Source: an uncultured Gammaproteobacteria bacterium
GTDB lineage: Bacteria > Patescibacteriota > Microgenomatia > UBA12405
Assembly: GCA_964408055.1 (NCBI GenBank)
Contig: CAYOXV010000003.1
Location: 1,437-42,566 of the forward strand
Reading direction: 5' to 3'
Length of the DNA stretch: 41,130 nt
The notes under the pieces are model-generated. The model saw nothing but the letters and a program-made list of their open reading frames with translations. It made no database searches and had not been told where the DNA came from. Shown piece by piece: positions 3,595 through 32,979 of this stretch; the stretch's first letter is position 1; each line of letters begins with the position of its first letter. The translations under genes were made by a program, and so were the position numbers.

Positions 3595-3933
3595 ATGAAC
3601 AAATTATTAGCTGTCAACATTGGAGATGCCCTTTCCCTTGGTGATGGTGCCGGTAATATAGGCGATAAATATACTAGTGTTTCTCCTCTTGTTTCTTCCC
3701 TTTTAAAAAATTCCCTCGTTATTGCTGGTTTAATTTTTCTCTGTCTCTTAGTTTTTGGCGGTGTTATGTTTATTGCTAATGCTGGTAAAGGTGATGATAA
3801 AAAAGCCAGTCAATCAAAATCTGCCATTACTAGTGCCCTAATTGGTTTTGCTATTGTTTTTTCTGCCTATTTTATTATTCAAATTATTCAAGTTCTTACT
3901 GGTGTTCAGATTTTAAATTCTACGCTACAATAA
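3595..3933 (+). CDS. T4SS pilin-like small membrane protein (VirB2/TrbC-like), paralog 1
   Basis: The 112-aa ORF has two TM helices flanking the loop ANAGKGDDKK, followed by ITSALIGFAIVFSAYFII. All six neighbours share this architecture. Confidence 0.6.
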   Translation: MNKLLAVNIGDALSLGDGAGNIGDKYTSVSPLVSSLLKNSLVIAGLIFLCLLVFGGVMFIANAGKGDDKKASQSKSAITSALIGFAIVFSAYFIIQIIQVLTGVQILNSTLQ

Positions 3934-3937
3934 ACTT

Positions 3938-4261
3938 ATGTTAGGAATATTTGGAACTATTGAAAACCCTACTAATTACACTTCCAATAATGGATCAGGT
4001 CTTTTCACTCTCTTAAGTAATATCTTAAAATTAGCTGGAGTTATTGCCGGATTATTTTTTATTGTTCAAATTATTATGGCTGGCTATGGTTATATTTCTG
4101 CCAACGGTGATCCAAAAAAAACTGAAGCTGCTTGGGCTAAAATTTATCAAAGTGCTATTGGTTTAGCTATTGTTGCCAGCGCCTTTGTTCTAGCTTCAGT
4201 CATTGGTAAAGTCTTTGGTATCAATATTTTAAATCCAGTTATTTATGGACCAGGAACCTAA
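3938..4261 (+). CDS. T4SS pilin-like small membrane protein, paralog 2
   Basis: The 107-aa ORF has two TM helices, the loop SANGDPKKTEAAW and then SAIGLAIVASAFVLA. It starts 4 nt after paralog 1. Confidence 0.6.
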   Translation: MLGIFGTIENPTNYTSNNGSGLFTLLSNILKLAGVIAGLFFIVQIIMAGYGYISANGDPKKTEAAWAKIYQSAIGLAIVASAFVLASVIGKVFGINILNPVIYGPGT

Positions 4262-4264
4262 ATT

Positions 4265-4642
4265 ATGAATCAAATAACTAAATTATTAGCTGTAGCTAAA
4301 GTTACCTATGCCCCCTTAGAAGGACCAGGTATTCCTGTTAAAAGTCAAGATGGGGCTGGTGTTCAATTGGAAACTATTATTAGTACTGTTTTTGGTTTTT
4401 TAACTATAGTTGGAGTCATTTTCTTTACTCTTCAACTCATCTTTGCTGGTTATGGTTTTCTTTCTTCTCATGGTGAACCAGATAAACTCAAAATTGCTCG
4501 AACTAGATTAACTAATGGCATTCTAGGTCTTACCATTGTTGTTATTGCCTTTGGAGCTGGTGCTTTTATTGCTAATCTTCTCGGGATCCAATATATTTTT
4601 AATCTTAATGAATTTATCGGTTCAATTAAGTTAACTAATTAA
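4265..4642 (+). CDS. T4SS pilin-like small membrane protein, paralog 3
   Basis: The 125-aa ORF has the loop SSHGEPDKLK followed by GILGLTIVVIAFGAG, and an N-terminal KVTYAP motif. Confidence 0.6.
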   Translation: MNQITKLLAVAKVTYAPLEGPGIPVKSQDGAGVQLETIISTVFGFLTIVGVIFFTLQLIFAGYGFLSSHGEPDKLKIARTRLTNGILGLTIVVIAFGAGAFIANLLGIQYIFNLNEFIGSIKLTN

Positions 4643-4643: not shown

Positions 4644-4994
4644 ATGGATTTCATTAAACCTATCTACGCTCAAATTATCAACCCAGCTCTTAAAGATTCT
4701 GAAAGCATTGTCGCTGATCCTAGTACTTATGTTAATAGTGTTATTCAATCTATTTTTAGTGTTTTCTTTATAGTTGCTGTCGTTTATTTTATTTGGCACT
4801 TTGTTATGGCTGCTTATCACATGATTTCTTCTCAAGGTGAACCTGATAAATGGAAAGCTGCTCAAAAGTCTATTCTTTATTCTCTAGTCGGTATTGTTTT
4901 GGTCTTTTCCATCTTTGCCATTCTTAAATTTGTTGGTATTGTTACTGGTGTTCAAGGGTTACAAAACCTTAAGTTAATTTGGCCATCACTTTAA
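4644..4994 (+). CDS. T4SS pilin-like small membrane protein, paralog 4
   Basis: The 116-aa ORF starts MDFIKPIYAQ and has the loop SSQGEPDKWK followed by SLVGIVLVFSIFAIL. Confidence 0.6.
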   Translation: MDFIKPIYAQIINPALKDSESIVADPSTYVNSVIQSIFSVFFIVAVVYFIWHFVMAAYHMISSQGEPDKWKAAQKSILYSLVGIVLVFSIFAILKFVGIVTGVQGLQNLKLIWPSL

Positions 4995-5051: not shown

Positions 5052-5432
5052 ATGTTCAAAAACATAAAAAACAAAATTCAAATGTCAGCCATAGCCGCTC
5101 CAATTTACGCTGCTGATACCCTAAAACTTACTACTGAAGGTGGCAGCTTCAAAAATCTTGAAAATTTAACTGCTGGTGGTATTATTTCTGGAGCTATTAG
5201 CTTAGTTCTTATTATCGTTGCTTTAGTTTTCTTCTTCATTTTAGTCATGGGTGGTCTTCGATGGGTTACTTCTGGTGGAGATGAGAAAAAAGTTGGTGAA
5301 GCTCGTGCTCAAATTACCAATGCTTTAATCGGTTTAGCTATCGTCTTTGCTGCTTGGGCTATTATGAAACTTATTGGCACTGTCTTCGGTATTGATATCC
5401 TTGGAAATCTTACCATCCCTTCATTCCAATAA
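5052..5432 (+). CDS. T4SS pilin-like small membrane protein, paralog 5 (start could be the internal ATG at 5082)
   Basis: The 126-aa ORF has an AAPIYAAD motif and the loop TSGGDEKKVGEA followed by ALIGLAIVFAAWAIM. Confidence 0.6.
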   Translation: MFKNIKNKIQMSAIAAPIYAADTLKLTTEGGSFKNLENLTAGGIISGAISLVLIIVALVFFFILVMGGLRWVTSGGDEKKVGEARAQITNALIGLAIVFAAWAIMKLIGTVFGIDILGNLTIPSFQ

Positions 5433-5490: not shown

Positions 5491-5494
5491 AGTG

Positions 5495-5500
5495 TATAAT
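5495..5500 (+). promoter_or_regulatory. -10 box (TATAAT) 6 nt upstream of the ATG at 5507 (pilin paralog 6)
   Basis: The sequence is gtgTATAATcatttt-ATG. It lies immediately after the terminator. Confidence 0.5.
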
Positions 5501-5506
5501 CATTTT

Positions 5507-5887
5507 ATGTCAAAACTGCTCAATTTTTTTATTCCTAAACCAGTTTTTGCTCAAACCCAAAAGTGGGAAATTATTAATTCTAAATGTGTTGGTACTGGTG
5601 AATTATCTGACGTCCCCACTATTAAAGGTTTTGAATGCCTTTTTTTTAACATTCTCCAAATAATTACCACTCTCGCCGGATTAATTTTTTTCTTTATGTT
5701 TATTATCGGTGGTTTTAAATATCTTACTTCTGGTGGTGACCCAAAAAAAACTGCCACTGCTTCTTCTACTTTAACTATGTCCATTATTGGTTTAGTTGGA
5801 GTTATTGTCTCCTGGTTAATTCTTCTCCTTATTAAAAACCTAACCGGAGTTGATGTTACCACCTTCACCATTCCATCCGGCAACTAA
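5507..5887 (+). CDS. T4SS pilin-like small membrane protein, paralog 6
   Basis: The track ORF begins at GTG 5492, but that codon lies inside the -10 box, so I call the ATG at 5507 (MSKLLNFFIPKPVFAQ...). The loop is TSGGDPKKTATA followed by SIIGLVGVIVSWLILLL. The stop overlaps the next ATG (TAATG). Confidence 0.6.
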   Translation: MSKLLNFFIPKPVFAQTQKWEIINSKCVGTGELSDVPTIKGFECLFFNILQIITTLAGLIFFFMFIIGGFKYLTSGGDPKKTATASSTLTMSIIGLVGVIVSWLILLLIKNLTGVDVTTFTIPSGN

Positions 5888-7491
5888 TGACCAAAAAAAT
5901 CCTTGTCCTTATCTTTTTTTTACTTATTCCTTTCAAAATTAATGCTTCTTTTGTTTATGCCCAAACACCTACTCCAGAGCCTGAAGAAGTCGAAGAAAAA
6001 AAAAGTGGTTGGGAACAGTTCTGGGATGATTTTTTAAATATAATTATCAATATCAATTCTAGTCTTAATTGGTTTATCCCTAAAAAAAATGTTCAAATAT
6101 CTTGTGAAAAACAGACAAACTTCACTGATTATAATGCCATTAACCAAAATTCCAATTCTCGAGCCCAAAGTAATTCATCTCAAAGATACCGTAAAGGTAC
6201 CTATCTTAAGGCTATTTTAGATGGTGCTTATGACGACGATACCATTGCTTATCTCTGTAATAATGTTTGTACTAATTCCAAAACTAGTGATGAAGGTTGT
6301 ATTGACATCAAATATTCCACTCTTGTCTATTATTTTTATCAAAAAGGTGAAAAAATCCTCTATGACAAATCTGATTCTAAAAAAACCATAGATTATGATT
6401 CCACTAAAATGGAATCCTATAATTACACTATTCCCCAAGGCACTGATTCCTATTTCAAAAATCTTTATAACAATATTTCTCAAATTCCTCAAGGAGCTTA
6501 CCAAGGTGAAGCTGACACTGCCGCTGGTTCCAGTAGTGAATTAAATGGAAGTCTTCGAACTTTTATCCCAGCTTCCGCTCAAACAGAGAAACCCCCTTCT
6601 GATATTACTAATACTGATAATGCAGAAAAGATGACCAAAGATAACGAATATCATCAACGAGCTCTTTACTCAAATTTTATTCCTGCTGAAAGTCAAAAAG
6701 TTTTAGGAACTACTACTGATTCACTTAATAATGGTCAAATTCTTGGTATCAGTACTGATACTGACACCCTAAAGAAAATTTTTAGTGATGACCTCCATCC
6801 CGCTTCTTGGCAAAATAATCAAGTTCTTATTGAAGAAAGCGATGAAGATGCTAAAAAAACCAGTCGTGGAATGAGCCAATATGGGGCTGTCGGTATGGCC
6901 TTATCTAATCTTGGATACGAACAAATTCTTAAAAATTATTATGGTGATATTAAAATTGTTGATATTAAAGATTATGTTTCCAACCCAAACAATATCACTA
7001 TTAATGTCCACACTCGCAGCAATGATTCTATTTCCGATAAAACAATTTCTCTTAATCTAGAAAAATATCTTAAAGGAATTGATGAAATTCAAGATTACAT
7101 TGGTAAAAAAAACGGTGGTATGAATATGCTCAAAGCCCAAGCTATTGTTTCTCGAACCTATGCTTTTGTTCGCACTGATGGTTTCAAAAATACAATCAAA
7201 GCTACCCATGCCGACCAACTTTTCACTTACAAAAAAATAGGGAAATTACCTTATCTTAGCCAAGCTGTCGACGAAACTAGTGGAAAAATTATTGTCGATA
7301 GCACAACCAATCAACCATTTGAAACAGAATTCAAATCTAAATTCTGTGGGCCCTCTCTTTCTTATCAACCAAGCAGTATTTCTGGCCGTAGTAGTAATCA
7401 CACCAACCCCTCATACACTTCAAGTCGATCTTATGAAGATATCGCCTACCAGAAACTTTACGATAAAAGTATTGATTCCACTTGTAATTAA
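5887..7491 (+). CDS. Secreted SpoIID/LytB-like peptidoglycan-remodelling protein with a long unassigned N-terminal region
   Basis: The 534-aa ORF has a signal peptide (MTKKILVLIFFLLIPFKINASFVYA|Q). Its C-terminal half carries the SpoIID motifs SRGMSQYGAVGMA...ILKNYYGD, LKAQAIVSRTYAF, HADQLFTY and SGKIIVDSTTNQPFETEF. Confidence 0.6.
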   Translation: MTKKILVLIFFLLIPFKINASFVYAQTPTPEPEEVEEKKSGWEQFWDDFLNIIININSSLNWFIPKKNVQISCEKQTNFTDYNAINQNSNSRAQSNSSQRYRKGTYLKAILDGAYDDDTIAYLCNNVCTNSKTSDEGCIDIKYSTLVYYFYQKGEKILYDKSDSKKTIDYDSTKMESYNYTIPQGTDSYFKNLYNNISQIPQGAYQGEADTAAGSSSELNGSLRTFIPASAQTEKPPSDITNTDNAEKMTKDNEYHQRALYSNFIPAESQKVLGTTTDSLNNGQILGISTDTDTLKKIFSDDLHPASWQNNQVLIEESDEDAKKTSRGMSQYGAVGMALSNLGYEQILKNYYGDIKIVDIKDYVSNPNNITINVHTRSNDSISDKTISLNLEKYLKGIDEIQDYIGKKNGGMNMLKAQAIVSRTYAFVRTDGFKNTIKATHADQLFTYKKIGKLPYLSQAVDETSGKIIVDSTTNQPFETEFKSKFCGPSLSYQPSSISGRSSNHTNPSYTSSRSYEDIAYQKLYDKSIDSTCN

Positions 7492-7515: not shown

Positions 7516-9165
7516 ATGAAATTAAAAATTAGAAATATTATCAATCGTCTCAATCGTCGTGATCTCACCCCAACCCTAAAAATCCCCAAATTTTTTAAAT
7601 TTACCCTTATCCTAATAATAATTGTTTCTACTTTCTTTTTAGTCAAAAACAATTTCACTAAAGCCGAAGAAGTTTCAATTTATACTGAACAAGGAATTGA
7701 AAATCATCCTGTCCTAACAGAACAAAATAACCGTGAGAATGGAAATAATTTATCAAGCTGGACCAATTCTTCATTAGCTGCCAATGCCGGTGCTGGGTTG
7801 GAAGCCACTTCTGGAAAATTTGAAACAGATAAATTAGGTAAAATTAGCTGGGTTCCCGGAGGAATGATTGGTCAAACCACAAAATATATTGGTTATCTCT
7901 ACAATGCTCCTGCTTCCGGTACCCTTTATATTGCTGACAATGTCAACAATTTCATTGGTAAACCTGCCTATGCTCAAAGTGGAATTGGCTATACTGGGTT
8001 ACAACCACTTCTCCCAATTTGGAAAATTTTTAGAGACATTATTTATATAATAATCTCTCTTGTTTTTGTGGTTATTGGACTTTTAATTATGCTTCGAGTC
8101 AAGATTAGTCCCCAAGCTGTTATCACTATCCAAAGTGCTATTCCAAAACTAATCAGCTCTCTTATCTTAGTTACTTTTTCTTATGCCATTGCTGGTCTAC
8201 TTATTGATTTAAGTTATGTTCTCCCAGGTCTAATCATTACCCTCTTCCTAAAATCACCTGCTATTAATGCTATTTATCAAGCCATGCTCTCTAACCAAAT
8301 TGAAGCTCTTAAATTATTTTTTACCAATCTCACAGATATCAATGCTACTGTTCTTAATAATGACTTTTTAAACGGTGCTATAAATCCAAATCCCTATATT
8401 CTTTTCGCTTATGTTGGTCAAATGGCCCCAATGGCAAATGTTATGGGAGTGTTAGTTTTACTTGGGCTTGCCCTAACCCCTACAATGGGAATAAGCGTCA
8501 TTCTTGGTGTCGTTGCTGCTATTCTTGCTCCTTTAATTCTTTCTATCATGATTCTAATTTGGATGATTAAGTTCTTTGTTGGTTTACTTAAGTGTTATTT
8601 CAATGTTATTTTAAAAATTATTTTAGCTCCTTTAGAAATTGGCTTAGGCGCTATCCCAAATATGAAATTAGGTTTTGGTAGTTGGTTTATCGGACTAGTC
8701 GCTAACCTTATTGTTTTCCCAGCCTGCACTCTCTTTATATTATTAGTTGTTATTGTTGTCCATACTATTCCTAATTTAGGTCTTTGGGCTCCAGATTTAA
8801 TTCAACTTACAGATGCTAGTTTTATTGCCAAAACTTGTATTGGCCTTGGAGCTCTTATGCTTCTCCCTAAACTTCCAAAATTAATTCCAGAAGCTATCTT
8901 CCAACTCAAACCATCACCATTTGGTACTGCTATTGGTGAAAGTGCTAAACCACTTGGTAATTTTGGTAAAGGTATTGGTAATACGGTTGTTAGTGGTGCC
9001 CGTGGAGGAATTGGTGATGCTATTGGAAACAGAGTTGCAGGAAGCAACTCTAGATTAGGTAATTGGATTTCTGGTGGTAGACCTCCAGTAGGTGGTGGTA
9101 ATCCTCCAGCAGGTGGTGGTAATCCTCCAGCAGGTGGTGGTAATCCTGGCCCTCATACTCCTTAA
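7516..9165 (+). CDS. VirB6/TrbL-like polytopic T4SS membrane protein with a Gly/Pro repeat tail
   Basis: The 549-aa ORF has an N-terminal anchor, a ~130-aa exposed segment, then many TM helices. The C-terminal tail is glycine-rich and ends GGGNPPAGGGNPPAGGGNPGPHTP. The gene sits directly after the pilin and wall-enzyme genes. Confidence 0.5.
   Translation: MKLKIRNIINRLNRRDLTPTLKIPKFFKFTLILIIIVSTFFLVKNNFTKAEEVSIYTEQGIENHPVLTEQNNRENGNNLSSWTNSSLAANAGAGLEATSGKFETDKLGKISWVPGGMIGQTTKYIGYLYNAPASGTLYIADNVNNFIGKPAYAQSGIGYTGLQPLLPIWKIFRDIIYIIISLVFVVIGLLIMLRVKISPQAVITIQSAIPKLISSLILVTFSYAIAGLLIDLSYVLPGLIITLFLKSPAINAIYQAMLSNQIEALKLFFTNLTDINATVLNNDFLNGAINPNPYILFAYVGQMAPMANVMGVLVLLGLALTPTMGISVILGVVAAILAPLILSIMILIWMIKFFVGLLKCYFNVILKIILAPLEIGLGAIPNMKLGFGSWFIGLVANLIVFPACTLFILLVVIVVHTIPNLGLWAPDLIQLTDASFIAKTCIGLGALMLLPKLPKLIPEAIFQLKPSPFGTAIGESAKPLGNFGKGIGNTVVSGARGGIGDAIGNRVAGSNSRLGNWISGGRPPVGGGNPPAGGGNPPAGGGNPGPHTP
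9073..9150 (+). repeat. Tandem 21-bp coding repeat (GGTGGTGGTAATCCTCCAGCA; two full copies, plus a truncated 18-nt third copy and a degenerate leading copy)
   Basis: Copies at 9091-9111 and 9112-9132 are identical. A partial copy lies at 9133-9150 and a degenerate copy at 9073-9090. Together they encode the GGGNPPA repeats. Confidence 0.85.
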
Positions 9166-26018: not shown

Positions 26019-28946
26019 TTAATTTAATTTTAATGTCGCTGAAATTAAATTGTGATCAGATAATGTTGTGTTAGTTCTGTAGGTTTTTGACGATACTAAT
26101 TCAATCCCTCTATTTTTAGGGAATATAATCATATCTGTACACCGAGTTCCATAATTTTCATCATAAACAATATTATTATTAGCAAATATTCCATCAGATA
26201 CTCCACAATCACTTGAACCAAAATTAAAATCACCCATTAAAACCCATGGAAGGGAATCTTTATTAATAATATTAGCTACATCTCTGGCTTGAGTATTACG
26301 ACAACCAGGGTTAGGGTCAAGGTGAACATTATAAAAAGACATATACTTATTGTTTACTTTTAAAACTGTTTTTTGAAGAGCTCTTCTAGCATCTAGACCA
26401 CATTTAGTTAAATCATTAGCAGCGTTATTACTCAATAGAACAGAACTTAAAAGAGAGTTTCCTGCTGAAGTTGGAGTATGGAAAGAATATTTTAACCCTG
26501 AACTAGCACTCACTCCATTTGTGATACTAATAGAACTTCCTTTATCAATTTCTTGTATTCCAATGACATCAAAATCACCTTCTCTTATTTTCAACCCTAT
26601 TTCACTCGCAGTTGGATGTGATTTTTTATTTAAATTACCTATATTAAAAGTCCCCACTGTAAAGATACTAGGCAAAGAACCAGGGGTAGCAGCTGTGTCA
26701 TTTAACACTCCATTAATTCTGATTATATGGTCGTATATTGTTCTTGAATTCTTTTTATTTTTATCTTTAGCCAAAAATATACCATTAGTTGTGTATTCAT
26801 AAATTGTATCCAAATGAGGATTACTATTTTGTCTATTTGACTCAATAGTTTCTCCGTTTCCTATATATAAAACAGCGTGGTTACAGGCTCTTGATTTTCC
26901 ATCCTCATAACAAGTGTTGTCCCTTATAAAAATATCTCCCACCTTTAAATCATCTTCACTTTTAATATTTTGAGTACTTAAAAATTCCCATCCCGCTAAA
27001 CTTTTATTATCTAATAATTGAGAAGTTGATCCTAACTCATCTACTCTGTCTATCCCCATACACTGTAACCATACCCAACTGACAAATTTAGCACAATCCA
27101 TCCCTTTGTAGGGATATTTATCTCCATCATTATCACTTTTCCCCCAATTTGAGCATGGGCCAATACATTTCCAAGCATCACCATCTCTATTGTATGGCAC
27201 CTTATTTTCAATAGATAAGGCAATATCTCTTAAAATTGGTCTACCATTAACATTTGAATTACAAATAGGTACCGAAATATCTCCAATCGTAGTGTAATCA
27301 TAATTACCAGGTATTTCTTCAGTATCTTCTTCGTCTGTTGGTGTTACTAAAGTTGATGCTTGTTGTTGCTGACAACCCAATAACATCATACAACATGCTC
27401 CAATAATTATAAAAGGTAACATTGCATGTTTGACCCCTTCGTATCCCTTATTTAGTACCCATCCTCCAAATTTACCATAATCTCTTTGTAATTTATCTTT
27501 AATATCAAAACTAATTCCTAATTTTTTTGCAATATTACCAAATATCTTTTTAAGTTTTTTAGCAATTTCTAAAACAATAATTATTACTGCTGCTATCCAT
27601 CCATAAGGTCCAGCTGATGCTGCTGCTCCAGCTTTTGCCATCATTCCTCCAGCCACCTTTGCTCCAGCTTGTAATCCCACTTTTATCCCTGCAGCCATTC
27701 CTTTTTTTGCTGCTCCACTTAAAAAAGCGTTAAACATTGCTGTTGCCCCTTTTCTAAAACCCTGTTCAGCTATCATTTTTAAACCGTTTTGAGCAAAAAC
27801 TTTTACTGCTTCATTTCCTATTTTTTGGACAAATCTTCCTGCCAAATTAACAAAAGTTCTATTTAACCAACCTCCAGTAACTTTATTAATCCTATCGGCC
27901 CATATTAAAACTCTATTTTGAGAAAAATTAAATCTATCTAAAAGGCTTGAATCTTTTAAAACTCCCATTATGCCATCAAAAGATTTAAACTCTCTCAATT
28001 TATCCGGCATATTTTTTAAGCCTGATAGTTTTTCCTTTATTTCTTCATACCTACTTTGAATTCCCTTTATCTCCCCACCTGATTTTTGCAACAAATTTAT
28101 TATCCCTTCAACATCAGAATAAGCCCCTTCAGTTACTTCCCCACTATTTAAAATATCATCTCTACTATTTTCTATTCCCTTATCACCATAATAAACATCA
28201 GCTATAATTTTCCCCTGTTCCCTAACTAAGACAATTTGTTCTTCATTAATATCTGGGTTTAACCTAATTGTTTCTTCTTCAAATTCTCTTCTAAAATCTT
28301 CATTTTTCTTTTTCCTTATTTCATCAATATTATTTATTTCTATTTTTTTTGCTCCTTCAACCATAGCCTTACTGGCCATTTCTATTTGAGTATCACTTTC
28401 TCCTCCCTTTATCTCAGCTATTTTTTTTGATAATTCTTCCTTTTTTTGTTTATCAGTTTTAATTTCTCTTCCTTCAATAATTTTATTTAATTCATCTTCA
28501 AGTGTTTTTTTTAATTTTTCATCATCTCCTAAATTTTTAGATACTTGATCGACTAGATCTTTTTTTTCTTTTTCCTTTTTCTCAGTAGCTTTTTCATCAT
28601 TATCTTTTTCAGCCTTTTTTTGTGCTTCTTTTCTTTTATTAGACTGAGATTTTTTCTTCTTTTTCCCCTCTTCTTCTTTCTTTTTTTTAGTCTTTTCTTT
28701 TTCCTCTTTTATTTCTTCTTTTTTTTGTTGTTTATTCCCTTCTTTTAGTTTTATTACTACCTCATCAATACTTTTTGCTGATTTTAATTCTACTCCAAAA
28801 AATTCAACCCTTTTCCCTAATGGACTATCTCTAAAAATATCACCAACTCCTCCTATTTTTTTGACTTCATTTAATATCCTAATTGTTTCTTCTCTAGTAG
28901 TTGGATCCTTTTCTAACCAATCTTTAATAATTTCTTTATTTGCCAT
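26019..28946 (-). CDS. Large T4SS-associated membrane protein: K/E-rich coiled-coil N-half, TM helices, NlpC/P60 cysteine peptidase domain, C-terminal EEP (endonuclease/exonuclease/phosphatase) domain
   Basis: The NlpC/P60 domain has Cys in GMDCAKFVSWVW (codon 27093-27095) and His in CNHAVLYIGNGETIESN (codon 26877-26879). The EEP domain (about 26022-26670) has TFNIGN, DVIGIQEI, FYNVHLDP, VLMGDFNF and SDHNLISATL. I place the start at ATG 28946; the track start is TTG 28949. Confidence 0.7.
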   Translation of the reverse strand: MANKEIIKDWLEKDPTTREETIRILNEVKKIGGVGDIFRDSPLGKRVEFFGVELKSAKSIDEVVIKLKEGNKQQKKEEIKEEKEKTKKKKEEEGKKKKKSQSNKRKEAQKKAEKDNDEKATEKKEKEKKDLVDQVSKNLGDDEKLKKTLEDELNKIIEGREIKTDKQKKEELSKKIAEIKGGESDTQIEMASKAMVEGAKKIEINNIDEIRKKKNEDFRREFEEETIRLNPDINEEQIVLVREQGKIIADVYYGDKGIENSRDDILNSGEVTEGAYSDVEGIINLLQKSGGEIKGIQSRYEEIKEKLSGLKNMPDKLREFKSFDGIMGVLKDSSLLDRFNFSQNRVLIWADRINKVTGGWLNRTFVNLAGRFVQKIGNEAVKVFAQNGLKMIAEQGFRKGATAMFNAFLSGAAKKGMAAGIKVGLQAGAKVAGGMMAKAGAAASAGPYGWIAAVIIIVLEIAKKLKKIFGNIAKKLGISFDIKDKLQRDYGKFGGWVLNKGYEGVKHAMLPFIIIGACCMMLLGCQQQQASTLVTPTDEEDTEEIPGNYDYTTIGDISVPICNSNVNGRPILRDIALSIENKVPYNRDGDAWKCIGPCSNWGKSDNDGDKYPYKGMDCAKFVSWVWLQCMGIDRVDELGSTSQLLDNKSLAGWEFLSTQNIKSEDDLKVGDIFIRDNTCYEDGKSRACNHAVLYIGNGETIESNRQNSNPHLDTIYEYTTNGIFLAKDKNKKNSRTIYDHIIRINGVLNDTAATPGSLPSIFTVGTFNIGNLNKKSHPTASEIGLKIREGDFDVIGIQEIDKGSSISITNGVSASSGLKYSFHTPTSAGNSLLSSVLLSNNAANDLTKCGLDARRALQKTVLKVNNKYMSFYNVHLDPNPGCRNTQARDVANIINKDSLPWVLMGDFNFGSSDCGVSDGIFANNNIVYDENYGTRCTDMIIFPKNRGIELVSSKTYRTNTTLSDHNLISATLKLN

Positions 28947-28952
28947 CAATAA

Positions 28953-28976: not shown

Positions 28977-31331
28977 TTAGACTATGCCATTACCAAAAAG
29001 ATCATCATAATCCATTTTAGTCTTATCATCTGTGTTTTTAGTAGGGGATGGGTTTTCTTCAATTTTTTTCTCATCCGTTTTGTTTTCAAATACTGGTTTT
29101 GGATCTTTACTTAATTGTGGCGGTTGAGGCACTTTTACTTCTTCATTTCTAATAAAAATTGGTTTTTTAGCCTCCATCACCACTACTTCAGGTTTTGGAG
29201 CTTCAAATTTTTCTGTTTTTTGTATTTCCATTACCTCTGGTTTTTTTTGTTCTACTTCTTCAACCTTAATTCCACTAACTATGTCTGGTTTTATGTCCCT
29301 TAAATTTTCAACTGGCTTGTTTCCAACTATTTCTGTTGCTTTAATTTCCGTCTTAAATTCAGTTTTTACTTCCTTTGGTTTAAACTCCTCATTTTTAAAA
29401 GGTACTCTTTGGTCATTTTTTGAAACTGGAGAATCTTGTTTTACTTCTGGGATGGTTGATATTGGAGCTTTAGGTAATTCTGGTGTTTTTACTATTGGTG
29501 TTTCTGTTTTATTCCTTTCTGCTTCAAATTTTTGTTTTTTTAATACATCTTCTGGGTTAGAAGTTATTAATCCATGTTCATCATCAGATGATATTACCTG
29601 GATTGCTACGTGATTCTGTCCCGCAAAAAAGATCCCTTGTCCTTTATCAGCTGTCAGCAATAGTTGTTTTTCTCCTTCACTTAAATAAAATACTTCACCG
29701 ATTTGATCAATAGCCGCCGTATGTTGTTTTAACAGAATTTGAATCGAACTATTGGTCACAATTTCCTTACCATATGGAGTTTCTAAAAAATCATCAACAT
29801 CTTGAGTAATAGTTGTTACTCCTAAATAATATTTTCGACCCCGCTTTACAATTCCTCTTAAAAATGAAGCTGAATCTTCGTATTGCATTAAATACCAAGC
29901 TTCATCCACTACCAATATCCTTTTTTTAAGTGTTTTTTTAACTGTTGTCCAAATGTAATCCAAAATAATATGCATCGCTACTGGTCGCAACGTTTCTTCT
30001 AGATTTTTAATTCCAAAAACCACAAATGGATTAGTTAAATTAACTGTTGTTTTTTGATTAAATATTCCCGAAAATGATCCTTTAATATATTTTTCTAATC
30101 TAGCTGCTAGACCTTTAGCCTTTTCCTCTTCCATTCCAATTAATGCCTTATATAAATCTTCAATTAATGGAGCTTCTCTAGTTTGAGTAGTTGGGTCAGG
30201 GGTTATTCCTTTAGCTTTATATGCCTCCATTAAAGCTTTGTCTAAAATTGATTCCTCAATTGGATCCATATTACCCAACATCACCTTAAGTAATTTATGA
30301 ACCGACAAAACTTTACTATTTAAAGCATTTTCTCCTTCTTCTTCCACTAAAGACAAATCAAATGGATTTATCTTTGATGCTTCACCATATCCAAAAGCAA
30401 TATACTGTCCTCCAACTGCAGTCGCTAATTCACGATATTCATTTTCTGGGTCAATAACCACAATTTCTGTTCCCAGCATTAATGATCTCAATACTTCTAA
30501 TTTGATCATATAAGATTTTCCAGCTCCTGCTGTTGCAAAGACAACTGAATTGTAGTTTGGCATTGAAAATCTATCAAAAATTACCAACGATCCGTTATGC
30601 ATGTTTATGCCATACATCACTCCTTTGTCGTCAGATAAATCAGAAGATACAAATGGGAAAGTTGTTGCCAAAGAAGTCGTGTCCATGTTTCTGGTTATCT
30701 TCAATCTATCTTCTCCAATTGGTAATCCAGTTATAAATCCATCTTCCATTTGCAATGTCGCTCTTTTACTCACAATTAAAAGTGATCCCAAGGCTGCTTC
30801 TAAATTTTTATTAATCCTTTCTACCTCTTCTTTAGTTTCGGCTGATATTGTTATGTACAATCCAAATTGGAAAAATCTTTCTTCTCCCTTAACTAAATCT
30901 GCTTGTAAATTCATTGCATCCTCTAATTTTGCCTGGGTTGCTGGGTTAACTAATCTTCCTCTTTGAATATCAGTACTTATTTCTGCTTCCATTTCTGTTA
31001 TTTTTCGTCTCAAATCATCCAAAATCTCTTTTCCATCAGTTGGATAAATATACATAGAAATATTTAAAGCCGCATCAAAATTTATTAATGACGACAACCA
31101 ATTTATTCCTACAAATCTTGGATATGCTGCCACAAATAAACTTCTGTAATATTTATTGTCAATTCGAACATAATTAAAATCAACTTCCAAAGATGATGGA
31201 GCAATTAAATCTTTAGTTGTTACCAAACCTTTCGTAAAATCAGTTTTTTCCTCTTTACCCCCACTAATAGGTTTTACTTCTTCTACTACCGCTGGTTTTT
31301 TTAAAATTTTATCTAAAATCTTCATCTTCAT
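28977..31331 (-). CDS. virB4: VirB4/TrbE/CagE-family T4SS ATPase with a ~190-aa low-complexity C-terminal tail
   Basis: It has Walker A VFATAGAGKSY and Walker B ILVVDEAWYLM. The N-domain is of the Gram-positive VirB4 type (YYRSLFVAAYPRFVGINWLSSL). The tail (about 28980-29555) is P/K/E/V-rich. Confidence 0.85.
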   Translation of the reverse strand: MKMKILDKILKKPAVVEEVKPISGGKEEKTDFTKGLVTTKDLIAPSSLEVDFNYVRIDNKYYRSLFVAAYPRFVGINWLSSLINFDAALNISMYIYPTDGKEILDDLRRKITEMEAEISTDIQRGRLVNPATQAKLEDAMNLQADLVKGEERFFQFGLYITISAETKEEVERINKNLEAALGSLLIVSKRATLQMEDGFITGLPIGEDRLKITRNMDTTSLATTFPFVSSDLSDDKGVMYGINMHNGSLVIFDRFSMPNYNSVVFATAGAGKSYMIKLEVLRSLMLGTEIVVIDPENEYRELATAVGGQYIAFGYGEASKINPFDLSLVEEEGENALNSKVLSVHKLLKVMLGNMDPIEESILDKALMEAYKAKGITPDPTTQTREAPLIEDLYKALIGMEEEKAKGLAARLEKYIKGSFSGIFNQKTTVNLTNPFVVFGIKNLEETLRPVAMHIILDYIWTTVKKTLKKRILVVDEAWYLMQYEDSASFLRGIVKRGRKYYLGVTTITQDVDDFLETPYGKEIVTNSSIQILLKQHTAAIDQIGEVFYLSEGEKQLLLTADKGQGIFFAGQNHVAIQVISSDDEHGLITSNPEDVLKKQKFEAERNKTETPIVKTPELPKAPISTIPEVKQDSPVSKNDQRVPFKNEEFKPKEVKTEFKTEIKATEIVGNKPVENLRDIKPDIVSGIKVEEVEQKKPEVMEIQKTEKFEAPKPEVVVMEAKKPIFIRNEEVKVPQPPQLSKDPKPVFENKTDEKKIEENPSPTKNTDDKTKMDYDDLFGNGIV

Positions 31332-31333
31332 TT

Positions 31334-32035
31334 TTATTTTGTATTAACTACTGGGGTATTAAAATCTAAATTTTGTAATTTTTGATTACCTTCTATTTCT
31401 TCATTATATATTCTATAAAAAAGCTCCATTAATTCCTGATTTCCTAGCGATTTTATATCCAACCCTAATCTTGAAAATAATCTCACTAAATGGTCTCTTT
31501 TGGGTTCCAAGTTTGCTTTTGCTTTTTCTATAATATATTCCTTTGGATAAGGTAGTTGTTCATTACTATTAGGTAGATTTAAAATTGTTTTTAGAGATTG
31601 TTTTCCTCCTCCCTTTATTCCTAATTCTAAACTAGAAAACTTTACCACTACATAAAAAGTTTTTGATAAAACATCATTCTTTTTAACTGTCTCTTCTACA
31701 AATTTTCGGTAGAATTTTATTCTTTCTTTAAGTAAAGGATTATTTTGTTTACTTTCTGCTCCTGTTAAGTTTTTAAGATAAGAAGTAATGTCTTTTACAT
31801 TAGATCTAATTACAATTTGGATAGGAAAATTAAGCGAGTTTAATATCCCTCCATAGGCTGCCACTAAGGCAGATTGTTCTGGCTCTGACAAAAGGTCAAA
31901 ATTTACTGATGATATTTGCATTATCGAAACACAAGAACCATCTTTCAATAACACTATTCCATCAACCACATCCTCAATTGGCAAATGTTCTTGAGTACTT
32001 CCTTTTATTGCAATTTTAATAGGATCGATTGGCAT
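31334..32035 (-). CDS. Hypothetical T4SS protein resembling a stand-alone VirB4 N-terminal domain
   Basis: The 233-aa ORF reads HLPIEDVVDGIVLLKDGSCVSIMQISSVNFDLLSEPEQSALVAAYGGILNSLNFPIQIVIRS. This follows the pattern seen at the N-terminus of monoderm VirB4/TrsE-type ATPases, but no P-loop is present. The ORF ends 2 nt before virB4. Confidence 0.35.
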   Translation of the reverse strand: MPIDPIKIAIKGSTQEHLPIEDVVDGIVLLKDGSCVSIMQISSVNFDLLSEPEQSALVAAYGGILNSLNFPIQIVIRSNVKDITSYLKNLTGAESKQNNPLLKERIKFYRKFVEETVKKNDVLSKTFYVVVKFSSLELGIKGGGKQSLKTILNLPNSNEQLPYPKEYIIEKAKANLEPKRDHLVRLFSRLGLDIKSLGNQELMELFYRIYNEEIEGNQKLQNLDFNTPVVNTK

Positions 32036-32049
32036 ATATTTATAATATC

Positions 32050-32979
32050 CTAATTGTGAGCAATTATTTTAATTGGTTCTACTATTTGACCATTTAAATC
32101 TAAATTGACTCTATCAAAAATATAACCGGTTTTTTCAGCAATTATTAAATATCTACCATTAGCTAATGGGGTTGATATTTTAAATTGTCCCAGTGAGTTA
32201 GTTTTTAATACCCTTGAAGGGTTTCCATGTTCATCTTGAATTTCTACAATCACCCCGTCAACTATCTTTCCTTCATTACTTGTCGCCATTCCCACTATTA
32301 CATTAGCTACTTCTGGAATATCTGGCATCGGGATTGTTCCAAAAAGGACTTTCCCTGTTGCTTCTAATTTTTCTGATTTTAATCCCAAATTAGCTTGTTC
32401 ATCTCGCCAATTAGCTGTTTTTACTTCCTTATCTTCTTTTGTTGGACTAACTACCACTTCTGTTTTTTTTATTTCACCTTTATTTAAATTAGTGGCTACT
32501 TTTTCTAATTCTGTTGTTGGCCCTACCACCTTTTTTTTATTTCCATGTAATCTATCTTTTAATGATGTTGTTTGGAAAAAATCGTTAAAATTTCTATGTT
32601 CTTTATTTTCTTTTTCTTCATCTACTTTTTTTATTACTGTCTTAGTTGAAGTAATTACCTTAGTTGCATCCAAATCTAACCAATTTTTATTACCATTTTT
32701 TTTATAAGTATAAATTGTTGGTCTATAAATAGATTTAATAAAAGACATTATCCAGTTTTCTAAGGGTCTGTCTTCAAAGGGGACAAAAGCTAGCAATAAT
32801 CCGCCTCCACCCAAAACCACCATCAATGGCCATTTAACTATAATTATTAATTTTGTTGCATTTATTAACAAAGCTAAAATAATTCCCACCGCTGCCTTCA
32901 AAAATTGCTTCAAAGTCATCTCTCCCACTAATTTAAATTCGTAGGATGATATTTGCTGTGGAATTGCATGTTGTTCCAT
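32050..32979 (-). CDS. PrgI/VirB3-like membrane protein fused to a C-terminal carboxypeptidase-regulatory-like (prealbumin-fold) domain
   Basis: The N-terminus, IPQQISSYEFKLVGEMTLKQFLKAAVGIILALLI plus a second TM helix, matches the PrgI-family pattern. The C-terminus is VDGVIVEIQDEHGNPSRVLKTNSLGQFKISTPLANGRYLIIAEKTGYIF. Confidence 0.5.
   Translation of the reverse strand: MEQHAIPQQISSYEFKLVGEMTLKQFLKAAVGIILALLINATKLIIIVKWPLMVVLGGGGLLLAFVPFEDRPLENWIMSFIKSIYRPTIYTYKKNGNKNWLDLDATKVITSTKTVIKKVDEEKENKEHRNFNDFFQTTSLKDRLHGNKKKVVGPTTELEKVATNLNKGEIKKTEVVVSPTKEDKEVKTANWRDEQANLGLKSEKLEATGKVLFGTIPMPDIPEVANVIVGMATSNEGKIVDGVIVEIQDEHGNPSRVLKTNSLGQFKISTPLANGRYLIIAEKTGYIFDRVNLDLNGQIVEPIKIIAHN

Follow-up and report, generated by a model that had tools for sequence, protein, structure and literature searches.

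The 41,130-nt window analysed here, that is, the whole stretch of DNA, comes from a metagenome-assembled genome (MAG) of Candidatus Shapirobacteria (Microgenomatia) and carries two gene blocks with parts of a type IV secretion system (T4SS) on either side of dnaA. This raises the question of whether the two blocks form one machine, and whether that machine transfers DNA or has been turned to another use.

Gene content of the two blocks

All 13 open reading frames (ORFs) of the two blocks are intact, with coordinates and strands as originally read from the sequence. The features are as follows.

Block A, 3595-9165, + strand: six pilins, SpoIID-like enzyme, 549-aa polytopic protein
3595..3933, +: VirB2-like pilin 1, 112 aa (PF18895, E 1.4e-7, 32 bits; two TM helices)
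3938..4261, +: VirB2-like pilin 2, 107 aa (PF18895, E 5.6e-11)
4265..4642, +: VirB2-like pilin 3, 125 aa (PF18895, E 8.7e-7)
4644..4994, +: VirB2-like pilin 4, 116 aa (PF18895, E 4.4e-7)
5052..5432, +: VirB2-like pilin 5, 126 aa (PF18895, E 1.1e-8)
5492..5887, +: VirB2-like pilin 6, 131 aa (PF18895, E 2.8e-11)
5887..7491, +: secreted circularly permuted SpoIID/LytB-like wall enzyme, 534 aa (PF08486 SpoIID, E 1.9e-7)
7516..9165, +: polytopic membrane protein, candidate VirB6 analogue, 549 aa (at least six hydrophobic segments)
9284..11620, -: soluble 778-aa protein, convergent with the gene of the 549-aa protein
22412..25501: rpmH (-), dnaA, dnaN and DnaA-box clusters, conserved landmark between the blocks (from translations)
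22743-24086, +: dnaA (translation)
24380-25501, +: dnaN (translation)
Block B, 32979-25507, - strand: PrgI/VirB3, TrsD, VirB4, NlpC/P60+EEP hydrolase, small anchored protein
32050..32979, -: extended PrgI/VirB3-like protein, 309 aa (PF12666 PrgI at aa 6-91, E 5.4e-5)
31334..32035, -: TrsD-like free-standing VirB4 N-domain, 233 aa (NF041427 TrsD, E 2.6e-9)
28977..31331, -: VirB4 ATPase of the CD1110/MPF_FATA monoderm type, 784 aa, lacking the N-domain and ending in a low-complexity C-terminal tail
26019..28949, -: membrane-anchored multidomain hydrolase, 976 aa (PF00877 at aa 610-708; PF03372 at aa 766-910)
25507..25989, -: small N-terminally anchored protein, 160 aa (one TM at aa 9-27; PrgL/VirB8 position)

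Each of the six VirB2-like pilins proposed at 3595-5887 exceeded the gathering score of PF18895 T4SS_pilin (29.4-43.8 bits against 26.6), and every one has two hydrophobic helices around a G(D/E)PxK loop; pilin 6 also matched NF045849 (Mbov_0395 pilin-like conjugal transfer protein, E 8.9e-8). The best match of each pilin was the one at the same position in three related genomes (L082, L083 and L094; 46-86% identity), compared with 31-38% for its best paralogue. By position, identities to these orthologues were 54-71% (pilin 1), 61-80% (pilin 2), 47-60% (pilin 3), 46-69% (pilin 4), 54-86% (pilin 5), and 53-66% (pilin 6). Judged from these comparisons, the six pilins appear to be ancient, individually conserved orthogroups in a fixed order. 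Such separate conservation points to different structural roles within a single filament, and it would argue against recent antigenic variation.

The 534-aa wall enzyme has one N-terminal hydrophobic segment and, as had been proposed, is circularly permuted, because its C-terminal motif (aa 327-364; TIGR02870 at aa 328-359) precedes its N-terminal domain (aa 384-485; TIGR02669 at aa 388-485). An alignment with SpoIID 4RWR displayed the same order swap. The gene occupies the same position in L094 and in L082, the latter having an additional SLT protein there.

The 549-aa protein had been called VirB6/TrbL-like. Its polytopic character was confirmed, and fold and gene context point weakly to VirB6, but every sequence-profile search was negative: Pfam and NCBIfam gave no match, Pfam was also empty for 30 family members, and hhalign against PrgH, hhalign against TrwI and a profile search of PDB sequences were all without match. 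At E<=1e-3 it matches 3574 clusters (50% identity), and it is taken here as the first member of a large CPR family that lacks annotation and has thousands of full-length members. By hhalign it is related (probability 92.5%, E 4.8e-7) to a 973-aa protein of Saccharimonas (L080), which is encoded directly upstream of prgI-trsD-virB4. In its AF2 model (pLDDT 76, TM core above 90), the top Foldseek matches in the PDB were TrwI/VirB6 of R388 (probabilities 0.95, 0.89, and 0.80), all sub-threshold (E 0.08-0.34, TM<=0.40). These fold matches and the gene context make it a candidate VirB6 analogue. VirB6 has been described as "scarce" in Microgenomatia (PMC12102498); compared with that survey, the Shapirobacteria family at the VirB6 position is one that standard VirB6, TrbL, and PrgH profiles missed.

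The adjacent 778-aa protein had no match in Pfam, NCBIfam, or PDB, and its homology was detectable only to the L083 counterpart (25% identity). A soluble ORF of 750-910 aa fills this slot in L082, L083, and L094; in L082 the slot is occupied twice, each copy following a paralogue of the 549-aa protein. It is possibly an associated factor of the system.

In block B, the VirB4 call was upheld by NF045971 (conju_CD1110; 393 bits against a cut-off of 325, model positions 179-734), with Walker A (ATAGAGKS at aa 266) and Walker B (ILVVDEAW) motifs in place. VirB4 also matched PDB 4AG5 (E 1.3e-46), P-loop_TraG (E 8.4e-30) and, weakly and at the ATPase level, CedB (E 4.8e-17), and it is 65-84% identical to VirB4s of Shapirobacteria MAGs. 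The VirB4-N-domain-like protein was likewise verified, matching TrsD and, in VirB4 models, roughly the first 120 positions (NF045971 positions 3-121), as well as NF045975 positions 104-235; its precomputed Pfam family is PF26593 TraC-like. By this model coverage, the VirB4 motor is split into TrsD (3-121) and VirB4 (179-734). The PrgI/VirB3-like protein, an N-terminal PrgI membrane hairpin followed by a C-terminal beta-sandwich domain, fell below threshold alone (24.1 bits versus 27), yet PrgI was matched in 21 of 21 orthologues (best E 7.7e-12; CarboxypepD_reg in 10 of 21), and its gene always lies immediately 5′ of trsD-virB4 across the loci compared.

The 976-aa hydrolase consists of a K/E-rich N-region, a TM region (~442-526), an NlpC/P60 endopeptidase, and an EEP domain (DNase I-like nuclease/phosphatase fold), NlpC_P60 and Exo_endo_phos both being matched as expected from the first reading. 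Its two to three hydrophobic segments leave the membrane topology ambiguous; the enzymes are presumably extracytoplasmic. It sits at the PrgK/VirB1 position, where pCF10 has its PrgK hydrolase. Relatives share only aa ~120-703; their C-termini are Peptidase_M23, Peptidase_C39_2, or nothing recognizable, and, one fragment apart, the EEP fusion turned up solely in near-identical relatives. The hydrolase 3′ of virB4 would then carry an interchangeable, presumably extracytoplasmic enzyme module, in this case NlpC/P60 plus EEP. The EEP catalytic motifs N, E (GIQE), H (NVHL), D (GDFN), and SDH can all be read in the sequence, and the domain is apparently catalytically intact. The 160-aa protein, predicted as anchored and indeed bearing a single N-terminal TM segment, matched no Pfam or NCBIfam family and is fast evolving, with only 4 homologues among 5.8 billion proteins; an exact match is annotated Candidatus Shapirobacteria, and a small ORF fills its slot in most Shapirobacteria loci. 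No equivalents of VirB5, VirB8, or VirB11 were identified.

Genomic setting and inheritance

The two operon-like blocks lie ~16 kb apart on opposite strands, both pointing at dnaA-dnaN. All genes of the housekeeping set reported between them (rpmH, rnpA, yidD, yidC, and jag, with dnaA and dnaN) were present, together with unrelated polysaccharide genes. The sequence-only reading had placed the blocks on either side of the replication origin. This stood for dnaA-dnaN and for the DnaA-box clusters: perfect TTATCCACA boxes occur just twice in the window, at 22665 and 24131, both times in spacers of the dnaA/dnaN region, and four one-mismatch boxes likewise fall within the rpmH-dnaA-dnaN spacers. 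It did not stand for the skew signature, and since base skew computed across the window showed no inversion at dnaA, the bracketing of the origin rests on dnaA and its boxes.

Dozens of related genomes conserve the whole arrangement, with unchanged order and housekeeping neighbours for both blocks. Across ~35 Shapirobacteria loci, block B retained its order and its place between a group made up of 5′-3′ exonuclease, GT, TrxR, Fpg, and IscS and the series dnaN-dnaA-rnpA-yidD-yidC-jag-wzy-wzx, and the synteny of block A was preserved in L082, L083, and L094. The whole 41.8-kb arrangement was found in a second genome, with both blocks on one 200-kb contig in the same layout, and wherever a Shapirobacteria contig was of sufficient length to show both blocks, both were conserved. 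VirB4, TrsD, PrgI, the six pilins, and the 549-aa protein have orthologues 40-86% identical across substantially diverged genomes, and GC content and codon-position skew are uniform over blocks and flanks. These observations support vertical inheritance of both blocks.

Among window ORFs of at least 100 aa, no relaxase, coupling protein (T4CP), VirB11, or integrase family was matched; the only Walker-A proteins in the window are FtsH, DnaA, and VirB4, and no att-like repeats were found in it. These profile, Walker-A, and repeat searches agree with the initial reading. A few kilobases past the window ends, too, there was no relaxase, T4CP, VirB11, other P-loop ATPase, integrase, or att repeat. 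The description "coupling-protein-less" therefore holds for the window and immediate flanks, and the rest of the genome may yet encode a distal T4CP or relaxase: among Patescibacteria, 2,918 genomes are reported to have VirD4-like genes distant from virB4 and 103 to have relaxases (PMC12102498).

Taken together, the two blocks very probably are the pilus-building, relaxase-less chromosomal T4SS of the ultrasmall Patescibacteria/CPR. The best overall explanation is probably that this T4SS descends from MPF_FATA conjugation machinery and has been re-purposed. The core of the sequence-only reading, a chromosomal, domesticated, monoderm-type T4SS-like machine that is no ICE and probably serves host interaction, is borne out by the VirB4/TrsD/PrgI profiles, synteny, and the lack of mobility genes in the window and its flanks.

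Proposed activity and alternative explanations

In R388 and Agrobacterium, VirB4 hexamers that VirB3 keeps at the membrane pull VirB2 pilins out of the bilayer and polymerize them on a VirB6 base. Given that the parts present here equal that pilus-biogenesis platform, pilus building would be the primary activity. The machine would build a VirB2-type pilus or tube, with the VirB4 motor (TrsD plus VirB4), anchored by PrgI/VirB3, driving pilin assembly together with the polytopic protein at the VirB6 position. The wall enzymes (SpoIID-like glycosidase and NlpC/P60 endopeptidase) may open the cell wall locally for the tube, which would reach the host cell carrying the epibiont; for the 976-aa hydrolase, the cell wall is the probable substrate, and host material where the two cells meet is a possible one. 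The analogy is incomplete, because VirB11 is required for pilus production in Agrobacterium and none was identified here. By this analogy, the chances are about even that the main product is a host-contacting pilus, and any specific cargo, be it effectors outward or host nucleic acids or macromolecules inward, is at most a modest possibility. Tubular structures, possibly T4SS pili, have been reported at a CPR-host interface (bioRxiv 10.64898/2026.06.21.733656).

Import is unlikely as the primary use; in this reading a device like Helicobacter ComB or Sulfolobales Ced would take up host nucleic acids or macromolecules, and the EEP domain would process host nucleic acid at the site of contact. 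Uptake of this kind would feed a bacterium unable to make nucleotides. The window has no coupling protein, which is also true of ComB, and the CedB match and the retained EEP motifs are in line with import. Furthermore, T4SSs were proposed as a candidate nucleotide-acquisition route in a PNAS perspective (PMC11665869), and a 2026 preprint tied VirB4 to RNA-based parasitism (bioRxiv 10.64898/2026.06.21.733656). However, only this species and its near relatives have the EEP fusion, other Shapirobacteria having M23 or C39-like peptidases or nothing recognizable in that place, and nuclease activity is therefore not conserved across the system. Phosphatases and sphingomyelinases share the EEP fold, and the best PDB match of this domain, to an inositol 5-phosphatase, was non-significant (E 0.41). 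PMC11665869 calls the transport direction of CPR T4SSs "completely unknown".

A working conjugative system, with its relaxase, oriT, and coupling protein located elsewhere in the genome or too divergent to be recognized, is very unlikely. In its favour, the VirB4 scores above the equivalog cut-off for a family of conjugal-transfer ATPases, the order PrgI-VirB4-hydrolase-small protein mirrors pCF10, distal VirD4-like genes and relaxases do occur in other Patescibacteria as cited above, and the portion of this genome searched was the 41-kb window with a few kilobases of flank. Nevertheless, relaxase, T4CP, VirB11, and other P-loop ATPases were missing throughout that portion, and dozens of genomes have the locus in one constant housekeeping context, which a self-transmissible element would not show. 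In Southlakia the distal t4cp is dispensable whereas the T4SS genes are essential (PMC12102498), and monoderm conjugation systems are without VirB2 pilins (PMC12857230), of which six are present here.

It is more improbable still that the blocks are functionally independent, with block A serving on its own as a surface filament or in adhesion and block B being what is left of an ATPase module, as their separation on opposite strands by unrelated housekeeping and polysaccharide genes might suggest. Dojkabacteria and WWE3 have no pilin or 549-aa-protein homologue within 10 kb of virB4, which fits independence. In Saccharimonadia (L079 and L080), however, the pilin array, the 549-aa-protein homologue, prgI, trsD, virB4, and hydrolases are contiguous and adjoin dnaN-dnaA, and every long-enough Shapirobacteria contig has both blocks. 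VirB2-type pilins are not known to be assembled by any route except a VirB4-containing T4SS. Least credible is a decaying integrated conjugative element, stripped of mobility genes and no longer selected as a machine: relaxase, T4CP, and integrase are missing from the window and the 160-aa protein and hydrolase C-terminus evolve fast, but 13 of 13 ORFs are intact, the core proteins are kept as the orthologues described above, the 549-aa family has its thousands of full-length members, the composition of the blocks is that of their flanks, and the homologous Southlakia system is essential (PMC10633639).

Comparison with known systems

The earlier view that this gene set resembles no known T4SS was not sustained. 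Its features correspond one by one to those of the published Patescibacteria T4SS (PMC12102498, PMC10633639, PMC12857230), so that its novelty had been overestimated; the Shapirobacteria locus is a further case of a recently published system and no new machine type. That chromosomal T4SS combines an MPF_FATA-like VirB4, TrsD, PrgI, and pilin arrays with dnaA proximity and no relaxase (Wang 2023 Cell PMC10633639; Quinonero-Coronel 2025 Microb Genom PMC12102498), relaxase absence, pilin arrays, and dnaA proximity being described for Microgenomatia as well (PMC12102498). The small additions made here are the six fixed pilin orthogroups, a candidate for the missing VirB6 in Microgenomatia, and the swappable hydrolase domains 3′ of virB4.

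Shared with the Patescibacteria T4SS are the MPF_FATA-related VirB4 adjoining TrsD and PrgI/VirB3, the wall hydrolases directly 3′ of virB4, and the lack of a relaxase or T4CP nearby; the locus is also chromosomal and adjoins dnaA, dnaN, rnpA, and rpmH, a position described specifically for Microgenomatia (PMC12102498). In Southlakia epibionticum the T4SS (SEML1_0006-0019; PMC10633639) and its pilin array were essential in Tn-seq, with no recognizable coupling or relaxase protein (PMC10633639, PMC12857230), and the saccharibacterial counterpart is essential for epibiotic growth (PMC10633639). Six divergent PF18895 pilins in tandem are common to both (in-array identity ~29% here versus ~25% reported). 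Essentiality was shown for Southlakia, whereas the Shapirobacteria system is known here from its genes. Unlike the single Saccharimonadia cluster (L080), it is split into two convergent blocks ~16 kb apart flanking dnaA, and its wall enzymes are a permuted SpoIID and NlpC/P60+EEP rather than the M23, GDSL, lysozyme, and C39 enzymes of Saccharimonas.

The conjugative MPF_FATA systems compared were pCF10 (prgH-prgI-prgJ-prgK-prgL), pGO1 (trsC-trsD-trsE), and CTn2 (CD1110). The VirB4 passes the equivalog cut-off of CD1110, the VirB4 N-domain forms a protein of its own (TrsD) as it does in pGO1, and the local order of VirB3, VirB4, a large membrane-anchored wall hydrolase, and a small anchored protein is that of pCF10, with no detectable sequence similarity to PrgH or PrgK. 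The monoderm envelope without VirB7, VirB9, and VirB10 is likewise shared. Unlike those systems, the window has no relaxase, oriT proteins, or VirD4/TcpA coupling ATPase, possesses VirB2-like pilins, and is chromosomally fixed rather than on a plasmid or ICE.

Bordetella Ptl, Brucella VirB, and Helicobacter ComB are also VirB4-driven, with VirB2/VirB3/VirB6-type parts and no VirD4, and they illustrate that a T4SS can do without a T4CP, whether it exports Sec-delivered proteins or imports DNA. Those systems, however, are diderm with a VirB7-10 outer-membrane core, and Ptl and Brucella VirB possess VirB11, of which there is none near the Shapirobacteria locus. Tandem divergent VirB2 genes beside a non-conjugative, host-interaction T4SS are also found in Bartonella Trw and the Anaplasma/Rickettsiales T4SS. 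The Bartonella and Anaplasma/Rickettsiales copies are thought to serve antigenic or host-range variation, whereas the six Shapirobacteria pilins, separately conserved in a fixed order, point to fixed and distinct roles.

Gene content of the two blocks

[quoted passage not shown] Block A is tightly packed, with intergenic gaps of -1 to 59 nt, and the gaps within Block B measure 2-29 nt. The two blocks comprise the following genes.

Genes of the two T4SS blocks (coordinates, strand, and product)
3595-5887, +: Block A pilins, six ORFs of 107-131 amino acids (aa), PF18895 T4SS_pilin
5887-7491, +: SpoIID-like protein, 534 aa, secreted, SpoIID signatures in swapped order
7516-9165, +: polytopic protein, 549 aa, last gene of Block A, without Pfam or NCBIfam match
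32050-32979, -: PrgI/VirB3-like protein, 309 aa, PrgI-like N terminus and CarboxypepD_reg-like beta-sandwich C terminus
31334-32035, -: TrsD-like protein, 233 aa, TrsD match, also matching VirB4 models over their first ~120 positions
28977-31331, -: VirB4, 784 aa, NF045971 conju_CD1110 above cut-off
26019-28949, -: hydrolase, 976 aa, K/E-rich N-region, hydrophobic segments at ~aa 442-526, NlpC/P60, EEP
25507-25989, -: small anchored protein, 160 aa, one N-terminal transmembrane (TM) helix

Between the blocks lie the genes for a 778-aa uncharacterized protein, FtsH, a 256-aa uncharacterized protein, an RNHCP protein, and a DUF4012 protein, together with those for Wzx, Wzy, Jag, YidC, YidD, RnpA, RpmH, DnaA, and DnaN. 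The 256-aa ORF (13671-14441, +) has no Pfam match and contains a GHTHPY...D stretch that recalls the JAB/MPN metalloprotease motif. Neither tRNA genes nor Rfam-recognizable RNA genes were found in the window, and promoter and terminator scans of its AT-rich DNA gave only chance-level results.

In Block B, the earlier assignments of VirB4, a VirB4-N-domain-like protein, and a PrgI/VirB3-like protein were all borne out. VirB4 scored 393 bits against the monoderm family NF045971 conju_CD1110, for which the equivalog cut-off is 325, and matched the Thermoanaerobacter VirB4 structure 4AG5 with an E-value of 1.3e-46. Its best 80 genomic relatives were all from CPR bacteria (Shapirobacteria, Woesebacteria, WWE3, Dojkabacteria, and Saccharimonadia), with identities of 65-84% to MAGs of Candidatus Shapirobacteria (class Microgenomatia, formerly OP11) and 44-61% to WWE3, Dojkabacteria, and Saccharimonadia. 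The 233-aa protein matched TrsD NF041427 (E 2.6e-9, under the family cut-off) as well as the N termini of VirB4 models, and the alignment of VirB4 itself began at NF045971 position 179, indicating that TrsD and VirB4 together make up one complete VirB4. The window PrgI/VirB3 sequence alone fell just under the PrgI threshold, and 21 of the 21 orthologues matched PrgI with a best E-value of 7.7e-12. This protein measures 309 aa in the window and 506-608 aa in WWE3, compared with 117 aa in pCF10, and the CarboxypepD_reg-like C-terminal beta-sandwich was present in 10 of the 21 orthologues. The adjacency of TrsD and PrgI to virB4 was kept in 66 loci.

It had also been claimed that the apparatus lacks a relaxase, a VirD4/TraG coupling protein, VirB11, an integrase, and boundary repeats, and this held for the window and its near flanks by family searches, a Walker-A survey, and a repeat scan. 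No window ORF of at least 100 aa matched relaxase, coupling protein (T4CP), VirB11, integrase, or recombinase families, and the only Walker-A proteins encoded within the 41 kb were FtsH, DnaA, and VirB4. The window contained no att-like or long direct repeats, its only long repeat families being the pilin paralogues and low-complexity runs. Beyond the window ends, contigs carrying its terminal genes added only more ATP-grasp genes, genes for a small exporter and a GH18 enzyme, and small uncharacterized ORFs, leaving window and near flanks alike free of a relaxase or coupling gene.

Pilins, wall enzymes, and the VirB6 position

Each of the six proposed VirB2-like pilin paralogs exceeded the Pfam gathering score of PF18895 T4SS_pilin (6/6) and, in the manner of VirB2, had two hydrophobic helices on either side of a G(D/E)PxK loop. 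The mean pairwise identity among them was 29%. When compared with the arrays of three other genomes, the window pilins best matched the same-position pilin at 46-86% identity versus 31-38% for the best paralogue. The arrays ran in the same order in all four genomes (window, 3595-5887; related loci L082, 3699-6487; L083, 6635-9050; and L094, 6067-8343), with one extra copy of pilin 5 in L082. As judged from these alignments, the six pilins are six old, separately conserved orthogroups in a fixed order. Such separate conservation favors distinct structural roles over recent antigenic or host-range diversification.

The SpoIID-like protein of Block A carried the C-terminal GMSQYGA motif (aa 327-364) ahead of the N-terminal domain (aa 384-485); both segments were thus found in swapped order, in agreement with the permuted SpoIID predicted earlier. 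Its scores were below the NCBIfam cut-offs (63.5 versus 83.3; 41.3 versus 234.75) and above the Pfam GA (32 versus 23), and none of its residues could be assigned confidently as the catalytic Glu. This wall-glycosidase slot was occupied by a permuted SpoIID in the window and L094, by SLT plus SpoIID in L082, and by an unrecognizable 280-aa protein in L083.

The 976-aa protein encoded after virB4 gave domain matches for both NlpC/P60 and EEP, confirming that call. Its relatives shared an N-terminal and TM region of ~aa 120-525, sometimes on through NlpC/P60 to aa 703. What followed the TM region was NlpC/P60+EEP in the window genome and near-identical relatives, and Peptidase_M23, Peptidase_C39_2, or nothing recognizable in other genomes (L015, L022, L026, and L028 among the loci compared); in the Saccharimonadia loci L079 and L080, the hydrolases after virB4 were M23+GDSL (lipase) and lysozyme+C39. 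The large protein after virB4 resembles a polymorphic enzyme platform, and this variable module may track host envelope chemistry. The EEP domain kept the canonical catalytic motifs TFNIG, GIQE, NVHL, GDFN, and SDH by sequence reading. Phmmer against the PDB returned only a non-significant inositol 5-phosphatase match, by which a nuclease and a phosphatase are not separable. BLASTP detected no similarity between the hydrolase and pCF10 PrgK. The 160-aa protein occupies the pCF10 PrgL position, which in conjugative MPF_FATA systems belongs to a VirB8-like component (PrgL/TraM/TcpC) with an NTF2-like fold, and its single TM helix agrees with the small anchored protein described earlier; it has only four homologues, and an exact copy is annotated as Candidatus Shapirobacteria in NCBI.

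The 549-aa protein had been called VirB6/TrbL-like; its polytopic nature and T4SS gene context stood, whereas sequence profiles gave the call no support. The protein had no VirB6/TrbL match in Pfam or NCBIfam, and Pfam searches with 30 members of its family gave no TrbL match at a cut-off as loose as E<=1. Using hhalign, the family aligned to pCF10 PrgH with a probability of 0.4% and to R388 TrwI with 0.1%, and its profile found nothing relevant among all PDB sequences. An exhaustive profile search of 1.84 billion representatives yielded 3574 clusters at 50% identity, 2333 matching at E<=1e-30; the best 150 matches listed were all close, and none of them bridged the family to canonical VirB6. 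VirB6 was reported as "scarce" in Microgenomatia through extreme divergence (PMC12102498), and a family so large and yet invisible to profiles fits this published scarcity.

Two AF2 models of the 549-aa protein, from 30 and 109 sequences, reached pLDDT 66 and 76.4, respectively, the latter with a TM core above 90. In Foldseek searches of the PDB, the top three matches of both models were R388 TrwI/VirB6 chains (prob 0.80-0.95; E 0.08-0.5, TM-score <=0.40, rmsd 11-14 Å), and DotA was also among the matches. Furthermore, hhalign aligned the family with the TM region of a 973-aa protein of the Saccharimonas locus L080 (prob 92.5%, E 4.8e-7), whose gene lies directly upstream of prgI-trsD-virB4, that is, at the prgH position of pCF10. 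By this alignment, the 549-aa family is the counterpart of the gene at the pCF10 prgH (VirB6) position; the window gene likewise lies in a T4SS operon, where it comes after the pilins and SpoIID. We regard the 549-aa protein as a putative VirB6-position analogue, the fold likeness of its models to VirB6 being suggestive only, and its family as a candidate for the Microgenomatia VirB6 component missed by profile searches.

A GKPxYAQ motif, invariant and internal in this family (aa 148-154, window 7957-7977), was observed, and (K)PxYA(Q/A) signal-peptidase-like sites occur near the N termini of ORFs 4644, 5052, and 5492 (pilins 4-6) and 5887 (SpoIID-like). The likeness could be coincidence or could mark a shared processing site. 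Convergent to the VirB6-like gene, a soluble, fast-evolving protein of 745-910 aa was always encoded (window, 9284-11620, -; L082, 11658-13946 and 15801-18035; L083, 11607-13859; L094, 11621-14350), and in L082 the VirB6-like gene and the large soluble gene are duplicated in tandem. The 778-aa window representative had no Pfam, NCBIfam, or PDB match and no detectable similarity to the same-position protein of L082. This protein may act as an associated factor or serve as a substrate.

Chromosomal setting of the blocks

Synteny of both blocks was checked in related genomes. In ~35 Shapirobacteria loci, the order around Block B was 5'-3' exonuclease, GT, TrxR, PrgI-TrsD-VirB4-(large)-(small), and dnaN-dnaA-rnpA-yidD-yidC-jag-wzy-wzx. 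Block A was kept in three further genomes with the divergent neighbors 7TM_transglut, ATPgrasp_ST, and RimK, and with the same downstream run of a large uncharacterized gene, FtsH, RNHCP, DUF4012, and wzx. On one 200.8-kb contig, overlapping look-ups rebuilt the whole 41.8-kb arrangement of the window. These data indicate that the split layout is an established chromosomal trait of the lineage rather than a recent insertion. A mobile element was rejected, given that tRNA genes, att-like repeats, and an integrase are missing from the window, the composition is uniform, and the position is fixed among housekeeping genes.

In Saccharimonadia loci, the pilin array is contiguous with virB4; in L079 and L080, the six-pilin array, the 973-aa protein, prgI, trsD, virB4, and the genes for large hydrolases are grouped together by dnaN-dnaA. 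On this comparative evidence, the two blocks of the window most probably belong together.

Three genes at 257-3421 (-) are transcribed away from the pilin operon, with 174 bp separating the two units. They encode a membrane protein of the 7TM_transglut type, an ATPgrasp_ST enzyme that ends in an aspartyl-protease-like region, and one or more ATP-grasp ligases of the RimK type; their adjacency to the pilin operon was kept in L082, L083, L087, and L094. They look like a peptide-ligase/modification module. The DUF4012 gene (14759-17704), which lies between the two blocks, encodes an N-terminal Rossmann-like region, one TM segment, and an outer DUF4012 domain. In four WWE3 loci (L036, L037, L040, and L041), a co-directional gene for a DUF4012 protein of ~1040 aa lies directly upstream of prgI, 44 nt from prgI-trsD-virB4 in L037. 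The window gene adjoins wzx/wzy, and the literature links DUF4012 to envelope polysaccharide (PMC6744442); it was left out of the T4SS. Many MAG records with this locus are titled "uncultured Gammaproteobacteria bacterium" (L002-L004, L006, L011-L016, and others), and L026 is titled "Candidatus Methanoperedens sp."; these titles look like mislabeling or mis-binning. We know of no cultivated Shapirobacterium.

The claim that the blocks bracket the replication origin stood in part: dnaA and DnaA boxes lie between them, but the base skew does not invert around dnaA (22395-24380). Two perfect DnaA boxes, the only ones in the window, and four with one mismatch clustered in the rpmH-dnaA and dnaA-dnaN spacers, which is the classic oriC layout. 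Cumulative GC skew, however, fell monotonically over all 41 kb. At fourfold-degenerate sites, the plus strand was C- and T-rich for either gene orientation and on both sides of dnaA, with GC skews of -0.85 (+ genes) and -0.58 (- genes) to the left and of -0.76 (+ genes) and -0.35 (- genes) to the right. In the isolated opposite-strand genes at 13671-14441 and 35097-36035, the skew tracked the strand, not the region. A skew switch at dnaA was absent also from five Shapirobacteria loci (L010, L017, L024, L030, and L039). The skew thus gives no sign of replication diverging at dnaA, and either this lineage has its oriC elsewhere than at dnaA or the asymmetry differs from the skew that bidirectional replication usually leaves. 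The published gene-dosage rationale for the origin position is not backed by base skew here and should be taken with caution for this lineage. Both T4SS blocks are transcribed toward the dnaA locus, an orientation kept in relatives; should oriC lie at dnaA, the two blocks would run head-on to replication.

A putative filament machine and its relation to known systems

Of a full T4SS, the parts encoded probably represent the portion that sits in the inner membrane and builds the pilus, namely a VirB4 motor (TrsD + VirB4), VirB3 as anchor, the VirB6-position protein as platform, VirB2 pilins, and enzymes that open the wall. In R388 and Agrobacterium, VirB4 pulls pilins out of the membrane and passes them to a base of VirB6 and VirB5, and by this analogy a filament-building machine is favored here. 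Its main product would be a filament or tube of VirB2 type, extending through the epibiont wall to contact the host. The analogy is incomplete, because no VirB5, VirB8, or VirB11 equivalents were identified in the system.

A more far-reaching joint reading, to which we lend little credence, would make the 549-aa family the missing VirB6 of Microgenomatia and the apparatus a complete feeding or contact tube. The six orthogroups would then build one heteromeric VirB2 pilus, and the protein after virB4 would be a scaffold carrying exchangeable enzymes aimed at the host (here a peptidoglycan endopeptidase fused to an active nuclease or phosphatase) that breach the host envelope and free macromolecules for uptake. 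If true, this would be a T4SS for nutrition, not for conjugation or virulence.

Comparison with conjugative MPF_FATA systems (pCF10, pGO1, CTn2, and ICESt/GBS) places the window system outside them. Those systems have a relaxase and VirD4/TcpA and reside on a plasmid or ICE, whereas the window and its near flanks encode neither protein, the window has no integrase or long direct repeats, and the system is fixed among housekeeping genes. Lacking a relaxase and T4CP there, not being on a mobile element, and having pilins, it does not qualify as a conjugative MPF_FATA element. The domesticated, non-conjugative T4SS proposed from sequence is therefore supported in substance, but not in its novelty: the statement that the gene set matches no textbook T4SS was an overestimate, since the system agrees with the Patescibacteria T4SS described previously (PMC12102498; PMC10633639).

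The VirB4 proteins of Patescibacteria form a monophyletic clade allied to MPF_FATA, with TrsD as the commonest virB4 companion and PrgI/VirB3 also found (Quinonero-Coronel et al. 2025, PMC12102498). In the same study, wall hydrolases took the place of VirB1, relaxases were nearly absent, and the commonest virB4 neighbors in Paceibacteria and Microgenomatia were DnaA, DnaN, RnpA, and RpmH (PMC12102498). In Southlakia epibionticum, which has no recognizable coupling or relaxase protein, Tn-seq showed that growth on the host requires the T4SS cluster and its pilins (Wang et al. 2023, PMC10633639). A 2025 FEMS review noted six divergent VirB2-like pilins and singled out the CPR T4SS, alone among monoderm systems, as likely to form a pilus of the conjugative type (PMC12857230), and a 2026 preprint reported tubular structures, possibly T4SS pili, at the CPR-host interface. 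A 2024 perspective called the role of the CPR T4SS "completely unknown" and floated effector delivery or nucleotide uptake (PMC11665869). The system proved essential in the single species in which this has been tested, and the window adds one more instance that leaves this picture unchanged; the handles it offers are a possible VirB6, six pilin orthogroups, an enzyme module that varies between genomes, and a caution from the base skew. With the chromosomal T4SS of Patescibacteria it shares an MPF_FATA-related VirB4, the adjacency of TrsD and PrgI, the PF18895 array, the absence of a relaxase or coupling gene near the cluster, and the dnaA/dnaN context, and it is, almost feature for feature, a further member of that published group.
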